A stretch of 12,774 nucleotides of DNA from Oscillospiraceae bacterium. GTDB lineage: Bacteria > Bacillota > Clostridia > Oscillospirales > Oscillospiraceae. The stretch is from positions 1 through 12,774 of the forward strand of contig JAZNZM010000010.1 in the NCBI GenBank assembly GCA_045594965.1, given 5' to 3'. The notes beneath the pieces are model-generated. The model had not been told where the DNA came from. It did not search any database and worked only from the letters and a program-made list of their open reading frames with translations. Below are positions 167 to 2,325 of this stretch, in pieces (positions within the stretch are counted from its first letter, which is position 1; every line of letters begins with the position of its first letter). The position numbers were made by a program, and so were the translations under genes.

Positions 167-1420
167 ATGTCGGGCTACAGCGAGCTTATCAAGAATTTTG
201 AACGGGTTCGCGGATATATGCGGGAATTTTATATCTACGGCTTCAAGAGCCGCGGAGACTACGACAAAAAAAGCGGGCGCAGCTATGACGAGGAACGCAG
301 ACATATGGAAAGCTGGCTGGGTGAGCACATGGGCTTTGTACGCAGCGCCGAAGGGAAAAATGTTTTCATATCTGTGGATAGCCGCATTTCTGCCCGAAAT
401 ACCTTTTACAGGGCTCTTAAGACCAGAAGCTTTACAGACGGAGATATTACTCTCCATTTTCTCCTTTTTGATATTCTCCACTCTCCTGATGTGAGCCTTA
501 GTCTTTCTGAGGTAACGGAGGAGATAGACAGGCGCTTGTCTGCCTTTGAAAAGCCCATGGTCTTTGATGAGTCCACGGTGAGGAAAAAGCTCCGTGAGTA
601 TGTTGAGCAGCAGCTTGTCATCTGCGAAAAACAGGGCAGAAAGATGCTTTATCGCAGAAGCGGCGAGTCTGTTCCCCAGGGACGAAAGGACGCCATTCGC
701 TTTTTCTCCGAGGCGGCCCCTTGCGGAGTGATCGGCTCTTTTATTCTTGACAGGGGAGAAGAGGAGGAAAGCTGCGTTTTCTTTAAGCACCACTATATAG
801 GCTCTGCCATGGACAGTCAGGTGCTTGCCGCTCTTTTCGATGCCATAAGCAGGAAGAGTGCCGTGACTGTGGATAATCTTAGCCGCAAGGCCGGTGAGGA
901 ACGCAGAATACGCATAGTGCCTCTGAGGGTTTTTATAAGTGCCCAGAACGGAAGACAGCATATTCTGGCATATCAGCCGGAGTATAATCTCATCAAGGCC
1001 TTCCGCATAGATTATCTTTCAAGGGTGAAAATTGAGGAGCCAACGCCGCGCTTCGATGAACTGAGAGCAGAGCTGGACAGTATGCAGTCAAAGATGTGGG
1101 GTGTGACCTGCAGAAGAAGCCGCAAAGAATCGGAGCGTCTCGAAAAAATCGAGCTTAAGCTCAGTGTGGGACGGGGAGAGGAGCATATTGCGCGGCGTCT
1201 CCAAAGGGAAAAACGCTGCGGCGCGGTAGAGAAACTTAGCGAGGATACGTGGAGCTTTTCGGCTGAGATTTTTGATGCAGGGGAGCTTGTGCCATGGCTA
1301 AGGAGCTTCATCTGCCGTATAAAAGAGATTAAATTCTCCAATGTGGCTGCGGAAAAGCGCTTTCGTGATGATCTTGAGGAGATGTACCGCATTTACGGAA
1401 TTGAGGAGGTGGAGGGATGA
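167..1420 (+). CDS. WYL-domain transcriptional regulator (N-terminal extension + DeoR-like HTH + WYL + WCX C-terminal domain), 417 aa
   Basis: The six-frame ORF runs 131..1420, but the ATG at 131 sits on the -10 element and has no RBS. The ATG at 167 is preceded by GGGAGGTGGG with a 6-nt spacing. Sequence features:
- HTH-like segment: LHFLLFDILHSPDVSLSLSEVTEEIDRRL...STVRKKLREY.
- Canonical WYL motif: RIRIVPLRVFISAQNGRQHILAYQPEYNLIKAFRIDYLSRVKI (P..L....G.wyL.Ay....r.FRlDrI).
- C-terminal WCX-like segment: ELVPWLRSFICRIKEIK.
The stop overlaps the next start (ATGA). Confidence 0.6.
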   Translation: MSGYSELIKNFERVRGYMREFYIYGFKSRGDYDKKSGRSYDEERRHMESWLGEHMGFVRSAEGKNVFISVDSRISARNTFYRALKTRSFTDGDITLHFLLFDILHSPDVSLSLSEVTEEIDRRLSAFEKPMVFDESTVRKKLREYVEQQLVICEKQGRKMLYRRSGESVPQGRKDAIRFFSEAAPCGVIGSFILDRGEEEESCVFFKHHYIGSAMDSQVLAALFDAISRKSAVTVDNLSRKAGEERRIRIVPLRVFISAQNGRQHILAYQPEYNLIKAFRIDYLSRVKIEEPTPRFDELRAELDSMQSKMWGVTCRRSRKESERLEKIELKLSVGRGEEHIARRLQREKRCGAVEKLSEDTWSFSAEIFDAGELVPWLRSFICRIKEIKFSNVAAEKRFRDDLEEMYRIYGIEEVEG

Positions 1421-2325
1421 TATTCAATGAGATATACTCCGCCTACTATAATACGGTTTCCGGAATAATAGCAGCTGCTGTGGAGGGCAGAGCATCGGAG
1501 GCTGAGATGAAAAGCATCATCTCCCAACATGCATTCGCGGAAAGTGCTCTTGCCATAATCCCTGCCCTGAAAAGCGGCAAGTGGCAGCTTCTGCATCCGG
1601 ATATGTCCACACCCATAGTACATAAACCGGATATGCCCCTGAGTCTGCTGGAAAAGCGCTGGCTTAAAGCTATGAGCCTTGACCCAAGAATAAAGCTGTT
1701 TGGAGAAGAAAACTGGGATTTTGAGGGCGTTGAGCCGCTTTTCACACCCGATGACTATCTTGTCTACGATAAGTACAGCGATGGAGACCCTTACGAAGAC
1801 GAGGAATATATTCGCCGTTTCAGGCTTATACTCCATGCGCTCAGGGAGAAAAAGCCCATTGAGGTAACCACGCTCAACCGAAAGGGAAAGCCTTTTTCAA
1901 TGCTGCTTATGCCGATCCGCCTTGAGTATTCGGAAAAGGATGATAAATTCCGTCTTATTGCCGGAGGGAAGCGCCGTACAGGTACCATTAATCTGGCTCG
2001 GATTCTCTCCTGCAGCCTCGCCTCCGATAGGGGCTTTTCTCCTGCTCCGCCCAAGGCGCAGGAGAAAAAGGAACTGACTCTTGTTGTAAGAAACCAGAGG
2101 AACGCTCTTGAGCGCGTACTGCTTCATTTTGCCCACTTTGAAAAGCGGGCTGAGCAGCTGGGCAGAAACCGATATCTCGTGCGTCTGCGCTATGAGAGGG
2201 ACGACGAAACAGAGGTGCTCATACGCGTTTTGAGCTTTGGCCCTATGGTAGAAGTTATAGGGCCTGAGAGCTTCAGAGAACTGATAATTGAAAGACTGAA
2301 AAAGCAGAGAATCTGCGGGAACTGA
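1417..2325 (+). CDS. WYL-domain protein (unknown N-terminal ~140 aa, then WYL + WCX; no recognizable HTH), 302 aa; translationally coupled partner of the upstream regulator
   Basis: ATGA start/stop overlap at 1417-1420. GAGGAGGTGGAGGG sits immediately upstream.
- WYL-like motif: KPIEVTTLNRKGKPFSMLLMPIRLEYSEKDDKFRLIAGGKRRTGTINLARILSCSL.
- Typical WCX ending: RYLVRLRYERDDETEVLIRVLSFGPMVEVIGPESFRELIIERL (compare lsfGp.veVleP..lre). Confidence 0.6.
   Translation: MIFNEIYSAYYNTVSGIIAAAVEGRASEAEMKSIISQHAFAESALAIIPALKSGKWQLLHPDMSTPIVHKPDMPLSLLEKRWLKAMSLDPRIKLFGEENWDFEGVEPLFTPDDYLVYDKYSDGDPYEDEEYIRRFRLILHALREKKPIEVTTLNRKGKPFSMLLMPIRLEYSEKDDKFRLIAGGKRRTGTINLARILSCSLASDRGFSPAPPKAQEKKELTLVVRNQRNALERVLLHFAHFEKRAEQLGRNRYLVRLRYERDDETEVLIRVLSFGPMVEVIGPESFRELIIERLKKQRICGN

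Follow-up and report, generated by a model that had tools for sequence, protein, structure and literature searches.

A translationally coupled pair of WYL-domain genes, a candidate two-subunit regulator of portable RNA-repair cassettes in Clostridia

Contig JAZNZM010000010.1 (assembly GCA_045594965.1) of an Oscillospiraceae bacterium carries two overlapping genes, open reading frame (ORF) A and ORF B, upstream of the genes for an SPFH/Band-7 protein and the RNA ligase RtcB. The whole stretch that was analyzed, 12,774 nt of the forward strand, is called the window, and ORF A and ORF B are together called A/B. An initial annotation of this DNA had described the two products as a PafBC-like pair of WYL proteins that might form a complex, sense RNA damage and switch on the SPFH and rtcB genes. 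We propose, with a probability of roughly 60%, that a portable RNA-repair cassette has a dedicated WYL transcription factor, of which A and B are the two subunits. Homologues of A were searched for in one genome per species. The A/B pair was conserved in at least 528 species-level genomes of Clostridia, from gut and rumen, and the best 80 loci (L001–L080) were analyzed.

Two paired genes for WYL–WCX proteins

The features of the locus are listed in Table 1. The start of A was placed at position 167, and an ATG at 131 was rejected, because every homologue opens with MSSYSELIK at the position of 167. Domains were assigned with Pfam (cut-offs of 21.8 bits for WYL, PF13280, and 23.9 bits for WCX, PF25583) in the window proteins and in 16 relatives of A and 28 relatives of B. 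In A, Pfam identified a WYL domain at aa 218–288 with 28.1 bits, and the CRISPR-associated WYL profile of PADLOC matched aa 212–388 (E = 5e-11, 41 bits). The WCX domain was found by profile search in 14 of the 16 relatives; the A protein of the window itself gave no match. Winged helix-turn-helix (wHTH) profiles stayed below the threshold (Penicillinase_R and ArsR, E about 0.1), and a PaaX-type winged helix was matched in 11 of the 16 relatives.

The AlphaFold2 model of A, built on a 16-sequence alignment, was poor, with a predicted local distance difference test score (pLDDT) of 60. It placed a winged helix at aa 91–164, a barrel at aa 217–292 and an α/β WCX domain at aa 326–409. With Foldseek, the best match of the model was DriD (8tp8, E = 5e-10), and BrxR, CapW, PafBC and WYL1 (6oaw) were matched as well. 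The winged helix had separate matches to SmtB, MecI and BlaI. A winged helix is probably present in A because the modeled fold resembles these three proteins. The first 90 residues of A (nt 167–436) were the best-conserved part of the protein, with many invariant aromatic and charged positions. This region had no Pfam family match and was modeled at very low confidence.

ORF B has the same two C-terminal domains in a more divergent form. Its WCX domain was identified by Pfam at aa 227–296 with 27.8 bits, and all 28 relatives of B matched this family. The Pfam WYL family did not match B of the window and matched 4 of the 28 relatives; the PADLOC WYL profile covered aa 127–296 of B (E = 4e-12, 44.7 bits). 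The AlphaFold2 model of B (pLDDT 72, predicted template modeling score 0.60) contained a five-strand barrel at aa 148–201. The W-Y-L tripeptide is replaced in B by F-R-L, inside the invariant block LEYSEKDDKFRL. Foldseek ranked PafBC first for this model (9fnd_X, E = 3.7e-8), and DriD, BrxR, CapW and WYL1 (6oaw) were also matched, the E values ranging from 4e-8 to 5e-4. The WYL–WCX fragment of DriD fitted the model of B with a root-mean-square deviation of 4–6 Å over about 185 columns. No helix-turn-helix (HTH) was detected in B by any profile, and no HTH family recurred among the 28 relatives. A degenerate HTH may be present in the helical N-terminus (aa 1–143), a part of which was modeled at low confidence.

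Profiles, relatives and modeled folds bore out the initial annotation on two points, namely that WYL and WCX domains occur in both proteins and that only the first has a detectable HTH. The two proteins were also compared with each other. A profile–profile alignment with hhalign gave a marginal score (E = 0.026) limited to the WYL region. A recent A/B paralogy is not claimed because this similarity is marginal and confined to the WYL domain. When PDB sequences were searched with profiles of both families, no relevant match and no PafBC came up; only the fold comparison linked A/B to DriD, PafBC, BrxR and CapW. A/B is a distinct, divergent family within the broad wHTH–WYL–WCX class.

The pairing of the two genes was strict. 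B followed A in 74 of the 74 loci where the contig permitted the comparison. In the window, the start codon of B (ATG, 1417–1419) overlaps the stop codon of A (TGA, 1418–1420) in the sequence ATGA, and GGAGG lies 5–14 nt upstream of the B start, within the end of A. The overlap measured 4 nt in 68 of the 74 related loci, 11 nt in 3 and 1 nt in 1. The 4-nt overlap is not a matter of chance because it was kept in so many loci, and the translational coupling read from the ATGA in the initial annotation was seen here as well. An exhaustive HMMER search with B retrieved 1349 cluster representatives, which included end-to-end A–B fusions of 685–767 aa. One of them, P0373, is a single chain of 763 aa. 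In a protein collection clustered at 90%, A and B each had more than 5000 relatives. The named relatives were annotated as 'WYL domain-containing protein' and came from metagenome-assembled genomes of Oscillospiraceae, Acutalibacteraceae and other Clostridia.

Fusions, obligate adjacency and coupling are classical genomic signs of a physical association. From them we infer that A and B form one complex, as the initial annotation had proposed.

RNA-repair cargo, promoter box and leader RNA

In the window, the SPFH gene lies immediately upstream of rtcB, and a noncoding stretch of 654 nt separates B from the SPFH gene. A same-strand rtcB was found downstream of A–B in 45 of the 53 informative loci, that is, loci with enough downstream DNA. 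The co-occurrence of WYL pairs with rtcB, which the initial annotation had left to be checked in other genomes, was seen in most of these loci. The order SPFH–rtcB was found in 24 of the 45 rtcB loci. The other 21 had no SPFH gene; most of these carried a gene for a protein of about 488 aa ahead of rtcB, and 2 had rtcB directly after B. Where checked (L014), the 488-aa protein contained DUF2828 and DUF7788/vWA domains. We take this DUF2828/vWA protein to be Ro/TROVE-like.

The DUF2828-type loci contained 1–3 tRNA-like genes between the box promoter described below and the DUF2828 gene. These genes scored 30–63 bits with the Rfam tRNA model (for example, L003:12751-13198, L067:13242-13408 and L059:14715-15119). 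They had odd anticodons (AAA, TAT, ATA, AAT, CGA and TCG) at irregular positions. The flanks upstream of A varied between genomes, and A–B with its cargo behaves as a portable cassette for this reason.

Distant pairs, with 33–40% identity to B, had a wider range of neighbors. One lay between RlaP and a KptA–Thg1–kinase/phosphatase/T4-Rnl1 cluster. Another, on pCX012922 of the cultured organism Enterococcus raffinosus (L087:1114-7948; NZ_CP081847.1, pair at about 674.5–676.7 kb), was divergent from Hen1–Pnkp–RlaP. The RNA-repair link drawn in the initial annotation from rtcB alone was strong and extended beyond it, to RtcB with SPFH or DUF2828/vWA proteins, to Pnkp–Hen1–RlaP and to KptA–Thg1–Rnl1. 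Other distant pairs (L082:3691-6915, L083:1067-5196 and L081:4901-10292), one of them fused, adjoined DarT–Macro, Cas1–Cas2 and ZorA-like/OmpA/VWA/TerD genes. The distant pair of Treponema saccharophilum was followed by a GGDEF gene, and the fused pair was near Zorya-like genes and a DmpA-like peptidase gene; neither had an RNA-repair link. Seen from these wider neighbors, the A/B family appears to regulate conflict and stress cassettes broadly, with a marked preference for RNA repair, and the subfamily of the window appears to be dedicated to RtcB cassettes.

A conserved promoter box was found behind B. It has the form TTCGCAGC-T7-CCGTG, is 22 nt long and near-invariant (the stretch in the window covers 25 nt), and is asymmetric. 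A relaxed pattern of the box was run over 1.18 Mb on both strands and gave 70 instances. The spacer between the box and the −10 element was exactly 20 nt in 69 of them and was followed by TGgTAaAAT, an extended −10 element; the hexamer was TAAAAT in 51 instances, and the upstream TG was present in 53. Counted from a −10 element placed at −12 to −7, the box reaches from about −54 to about −33, with its center near −43. The transcription start in the window is predicted at about 2524–2526. The end of the box and the next 3 nt occupy the position of a weak −35 element. Their sequence is GTGAAA in the consensus, with 4 of 6 positions matched, and GTGATT in the window, with 3 of 6 matched.

The instances were not scattered. 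Right behind B lay 62 of the 70, and the other 8 were all in a cassette context. Four of these 8 were second copies ahead of further cargo units and had no 5' arm of the hairpin described below. Of the last four, one lay ahead of a divergently placed rtcB some 5 kb away from A (L043), one ahead of DarT–Macro beside a distant pair, one ahead of KptA–Thg1 and one in the window itself. Locus L082 contained the box twice, one copy facing DarT–Macro and one behind B. The Hen1 promoter of E. raffinosus carried the related sequence CTCGCACCC-T6 at an equal distance of 25 nt from its −10 element.

A metagenome scan with the 20-nt box alone served as an independent sample; the count was limited to boxes preceded by 400 nt or more of sequence (n = 108). 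B was directly upstream of 87 boxes, and A/B was elsewhere in the locus for another 5. Known cassette cargo was downstream in 41 of the 45 metagenome loci with enough downstream sequence. The distribution of the box points to a promoter type tied to A/B and its cargo, including cases that resemble regulation in trans.

The box overlaps a duplicated terminator in the window. The first copy has a 13-bp stem, AATCTGCGGGAAC / GTTCCCGCAGATT, with the B stop codon TGA as the loop and a T-run behind it. The second copy is degenerate; CTGCGA (2457–2462) pairs with TCGCAG (2474–2479), and the promoter box includes the 3' arm of this copy. The two copies are separated by an insertion, to which a further hairpin at 2432–2456 belongs. 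Most relatives have a single terminator copy fused directly to the box. In them, the 5' arm consists of the codons at the end of B, K-S-C-E-L (AAAAGCTGCGAACT), the stop codon is in or near the loop, and the 3' arm GTTCGCAGCTTTT is followed by the T-run.

The initial annotation had proposed palindromes at 2311–2337 and 2453–2483 as operators. We rejected them as symmetric operators: both are terminator copies because the window carries the terminator hairpin of its relatives twice, and the asymmetric box at 2468–2492 is the likelier candidate. The possibility that the box is a mere 3' half of the terminator was also rejected. The box must be more than this because copies lacking the upstream hairpin arm exist, and copies at distant or divergent cargo retain it too.

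The 5' arm of the terminator codes for the C-terminus of B (2304–2325; KQKSCEL in relatives) and is complementary to the promoter box. A single short stretch thus has three uses, in the coding sequence, in the terminator stem and, via its partner strand, in the promoter.

The transcript of the SPFH and rtcB genes would begin with a structured leader RNA of about 460 nt. In an alignment of 26 SPFH-type loci, the DNA was conserved from about 2525 to the SPFH start; the leader fold had 85 pairs, 92.2% of the cells were paired, and compensatory changes were seen in 54 pairs. The observed values were never attained in 500 shuffles, and slid partners gave 36–43% pairing. A canonical T-arm (5-bp stem, TTCRANT loop) with a covarying hairpin was present in 21 of the 26 leaders, and CCA followed 20–26 nt past the T-arm in 19 of these 21. 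Rfam (gathering and E-value modes) and ARAGORN identified no known RNA family or tRNA in the window. A similarity to YrlA at 2639–2725 was weak and non-significant (Rfam, 13.8 bits).

The module of T-arm, hairpin and CCA resembles a permuted acceptor/T-arm minihelix. In several relatives, a second T-arm-like hairpin (GGGGTTCAACTCCCC) lies upstream of the first. The 3' rod of the leader carries invariant loops, for example GGATACCG and TTTCCGC. Burroughs and Aravind reportedly described a tRNA-like RNA with SPFH/Band-7–RtcB systems (NAR 2016).

Table 1. Coordinates of the A/B locus and of the first cargo genes in the window
Feature	Position (nt)	Position (aa)	Strand	Remarks
ORF A	167-1420	1-417	+	417 aa; unassigned N-terminal region (aa 1-90), wHTH, WYL, WCX
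wHTH of A	437-658	~91-164	+	weak profiles and AlphaFold2 fold
WYL of A	818-1030	218-288	+	Pfam PF13280
WCX of A	1142-1393	~326-409	+	relatives and AlphaFold2 model
Coupling junction	1403-1420		+	Shine-Dalgarno sequence GAGGAGGTGGAGGG in the 3' end of A; ATGA at 1417-1420
ORF B	1417-2325	1-302	+	302 aa; helical N-terminal region, divergent WYL barrel, WCX
N-terminal region of B		1-143	+	all-helical, partly low confidence, no detectable HTH
WYL barrel of B	1846-2019	~144-201	+	divergent; WYL motif replaced by FRL
WCX of B	2065-2304	217-296	+	Pfam PF25583 (aa 227-296)
Intrinsic terminator of the A-B operon	2310-2341		+	hairpin and T-run; first palindrome of the initial annotation
Insertion between terminator copies	2342-2451			about 110 nt, window-specific, missing from most relatives
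Second, degenerate terminator hairpin	2452-2483		+	second palindrome of the initial annotation
Conserved promoter box, candidate A/B site	2468-2492		+	window GAGTTTTCGCAGTTTTTTTTCCGTG; family consensus gagTTCGCAGCTTTTTTTCCGTGa
Variable spacer	2493-2512		+	20 nt, in register with relatives
-10 element	2513-2518		+	TAATAT, in register with relatives
Leader RNA of the SPFH-rtcB transcript	2519-2979		+	about 460 nt, structured, covariation-supported
Leader 5' hairpins	about 2521-2594		+	covariation fold
T-arm-like hairpin	2662-2678		+	GTGGG-TTCAAAT-CCCAC
Second hairpin	2680-2697		+	covarying, one base after the T-arm
CCA	2699-2701		+	after the second hairpin
3' rod-like domain	2774-2944		+	long, irregular
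SPFH/Band-7 protein (cargo gene 1)	2980-4080		+	PF01145, 99 bits
RtcB RNA ligase (cargo gene 2)	4099-5307		+	PF01139, 199 bits

Other ORFs of the window are of a housekeeping kind and encode a HAD hydrolase, a SpoU methylase, DprA, topoisomerase I (TopA) and TrmFO. No ORF for RtcR, RtcA or a sigma-54 activator was found within the window, in agreement with the absence of RtcR stated in the initial annotation. Just after rtcB, two overlapping ORFs, 5322–5603 on the minus strand and 5325–5693 on the plus strand, had no Pfam match, and the product of the former looked hydrophobic.

Several loci (L053:12264-13831, L047, L061, L071 and L008) carried extra cargo behind the box, namely a protein that contains DUF4275 and a conserved one, about 155 aa long, without a Pfam match. 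Loci L029 and L070 carried an AAA ATPase and a large partner of unknown function. A tblastn search of the GenBank phage collection with B gave no match. One exact 20-nt box lay at 9826–9845 of a 50-kb viral contig (L208, IMGVR_UViG_3300045988_016381), which was counted in the metagenome pool.

A proposed two-subunit factor and its alternatives

In the proposed mechanism, the ATGA overlap would supply A and B in a fixed ratio, and the two proteins would assemble via their WCX and WYL domains. A would contribute the sole recognizable winged-helix DNA-binding domain, and B a second ligand-binding WYL domain. The complex would recognize TTCGCAGC-T7-CCGTG between about −54 and −33, in a sigma-A promoter whose −10 element is of the extended type. 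This promoter, right behind the A–B terminator, would drive the tRNA-like leader RNA, the SPFH gene and rtcB. A single-stranded nucleic-acid fragment on the WYL domains would switch it. WYL1 of Ruminococcus, which binds single-stranded RNA, is a precedent.

Several points weigh against this proposal. The model of A, from which its winged helix was read, is poor. Upstream of A, no autoregulatory site was conserved across loci. In the metagenome scan, 16 of the 108 boxes had no A/B nearby; 9 of these 16 still preceded SPFH or rtcB–DUF2828. The fixed spacing is no proof of an activator because sigma-A itself would fix it if GTGAnn in the box were the −35 hexamer, and the 20 nt could reflect such a constraint. 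The extended −10 element (TG in 53 of 70) could suffice for a strong promoter, which would favor a repressor of the BrxR or CapW kind. The family also accompanies cargo outside RNA repair (DarT–Macro, Cas1–Cas2, GGDEF and Zorya-like genes). PafBC, DriD and CapW bind single-stranded DNA (ssDNA), which is established as their ligand (PMC11804915, PMC13004042, PMC11662680), and a Lactiplantibacillus WYL factor senses cyclic di-GMP (PMC11880434). No WYL factor among these is known to sense damaged RNA.

A first alternative concerns the ligand. A/B might sense DNA damage or phage via ssDNA; RNA repair would then be one output of a general stress or defense response, with no RNA ligand. We regard this as quite possible, if improbable on balance. 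It fits the ssDNA binding of the three factors just cited and the family members that flank DarT–Macro and Cas1–Cas2. DNA-damaging agents also induce Salmonella rtcBA, in that case via tRNA fragments and RtcR (PMC7790460). Against it, one regulator type is common to three chemically different RNA-repair systems, which points to an RNA-centered signal, and the WYL fold is Sm-like. The Aravind group also put forward RNAs with cyclic-phosphate ends as possible signals for WYL factors and suggested that RNA-repair pathways are regulated by some of these factors (PMC9503650, citing a 2016 survey). In its general form, the notion that WYL factors control RNA repair is found in earlier publications. 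RNA-damage products are attractive as ligands because three such different repair systems have this regulator type, and we lean toward them over ssDNA.

The sign of control was weighed in the same way. A/B could be a repressor like BrxR or CapW that uses the same box. It would cover the region from −54 to −33 in an extended −10 promoter that is strong constitutively, and single-stranded nucleic acid on its WYL domains would free it. The TG of the extended −10 element in 53 of the 70 promoters, the T7 tract at the position of an UP element and the overlap of the box with the −35 position are all in keeping with repression. So are the defense genes next to distant A/B pairs and the precedent of the defense-linked WYL factors CapW and BrxR, which repress (PMC11662680; PDB structural matches). 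The −35 element of these promoters is weak, however, in the consensus (GTGAAA, 4/6) and more so in the window (GTGATT, 3/6), and the activators DriD and PafBC are among the nearest structural matches. The operators of DriD, BrxR and CapW are palindromic or pseudo-palindromic, whereas the candidate operator here is asymmetric, unlike the sites of CapW and BrxR in particular. A repressor is possible, though in our view less likely than not.

We lean slightly to activation over relief of repression because the −35 element is weak, the box is centered near −43 and the nearest folds include DriD and PafBC. Both of these factors act at a fixed distance from the −10 element, on promoters with a poor −35 element (PMC11804915, PMC13004042).

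A different division of labor would make A alone the transcription factor. B would be an RNA-binding accessory, comparable to WYL1, for the tRNA-like RNA or other RNA substrates, and would aid SPFH and RtcB. WYL1 is among the structural matches of B. B has no detectable HTH, and a tRNA-like RNA appears to occur in every RtcB cassette. This arrangement is unlikely in the face of the A–B fusions and of the constancy of the pair: B stays with A when the cargo is DarT–Macro, Cas1–Cas2 or Pnkp–Hen1, all without a tRNA-like RNA. B also has a WCX domain, which forms the heterodimer in PafBC (PMC11804915).

It is very improbable that the pair lies next to rtcB by accident and controls some unrelated regulon: the variable upstream flanks and the distant pairs without RNA-repair neighbors would allow it, but rtcB is downstream in 45 of 53 loci and the box is tied to A/B and to cassette cargo.

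The two-subunit factor for RNA-repair cassettes can be carried further, in a tentative form that we hold to be considerably less probable than the proposal itself. The ligand would thread across two non-identical WYL domains. Among heteromeric WYL regulators, the complex would be the second and of a different architecture, with a detectable DNA-binding domain in only one subunit. It would recruit sigma-A RNA polymerase while bound to the asymmetric box, near −43. A/B might then be a Firmicute counterpart of RtcR, common to RtcB-, Pnkp/Hen1- and Rnl1/Thg1/KptA-type repair.

Comparison with known regulators and significance

Apart from PafBC, no heterodimeric WYL protein has so far been reported (PMC11804915). 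Like A/B, PafBC is encoded by two adjacent genes, both products of which contain WYL and WCX domains, and by analogy a heteromer would be expected here. Fused forms occur naturally in both cases, in Arthrobacter PafBC and in the A–B fusions, and in both the promoter element lies at a fixed distance from the −10 element without a good −35 element. PafBC is also functionally asymmetric, in that only the HTH of PafB reads DNA and the HTH of PafC touches sigma region 4 (PMC11804915); the probable asymmetry of A/B is comparable.

There were also differences. Profile searches of PDB sequences found no sequence-level similarity between PafBC and A/B. Both PafBC genes encode HTH–WYL–WCX proteins; in A/B, no HTH was detectable in B, and the conserved N-terminal 90 aa of A are additional. 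PafBC belongs to Actinobacteria and a pup-proteasome context, and A/B to Clostridia beside SPFH and RtcB. The PafBC motif lies at −26 (sigma adaptation), in contrast to the A/B box (about −54 to −33). PafBC controls a DNA-repair regulon with some 150 genes, and A/B would control a local RNA-repair cassette. Orthology to PafBC was rejected on the grounds of sequence, the HTH of B, taxon, promoter geometry and regulon. The term 'PafBC-like' used in the initial annotation holds as an analogy and fails as a statement of relationship.

DriD, BrxR and CapW have the domain order that A probably has and are its best structural matches. They control adjacent stress or defense operons, and DriD and CapW are gated by single-stranded nucleic acid. 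They differ from the proposed A/B complex in being homodimers, and the known ligand of DriD and CapW is ssDNA. We know of none among the three that controls RNA repair. WYL1, the Cas13d accessory of Ruminococcus, shares with A/B the WYL domain and the occurrence in Clostridia, and it was a structural match of both A and B. Its N-terminus is of the ribbon-helix-helix type; WYL1 serves as a CRISPR-effector accessory and is not known as a transcription factor.

RtcR resembles the proposed A/B factor in that the gene of a ligand-gated regulator lies next to rtcB, for RtcR usually together with rtcA. It is built from CARF and AAA+ folds with an HTH, whereas A/B has WYL domains. RtcR uses a sigma-54 promoter and enhancer binding, and A/B in contrast is associated with a sigma-A-type promoter and a proximal box. 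By analogy, A/B would probably play the role that RtcR has in Proteobacteria, with unrelated domains. The RtcR-controlled rtc locus of P. aeruginosa also has an SPFH gene (PMC13086221).

The combination of a scaffold protein (SPFH in the window, DUF2828/vWA in sister loci), a putative tRNA-like RNA and RtcB is like that of the Rsr(Ro60)–YrlA/YrlB–RtcBA and SPFH/Band-7–RtcB systems. It differs from them in that the RNA here is a 460-nt leader fused to the SPFH–rtcB mRNA, without an Rfam match, and in that the regulator is the A/B WYL pair and not RtcR. The 2016 survey by Burroughs and Aravind, cited in PMC7824862 and PMC9503650, belongs to this background.

The A/B family has a concrete candidate operator and a cultured carrier, E. 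raffinosus. The box is also a search handle for new cargo genes and for the tRNA-like RNAs of the cassettes. To our knowledge, the only experimentally known switch for RNA repair is RtcR in Proteobacteria. A/B would be a compact second solution, in which two proteins act through one 25-nt box at one promoter and the outputs span three repair chemistries. It could reveal whether RNA damage can be read by WYL domains, and how a heteromeric WYL factor functions when only one DNA-binding domain is detectable in it.

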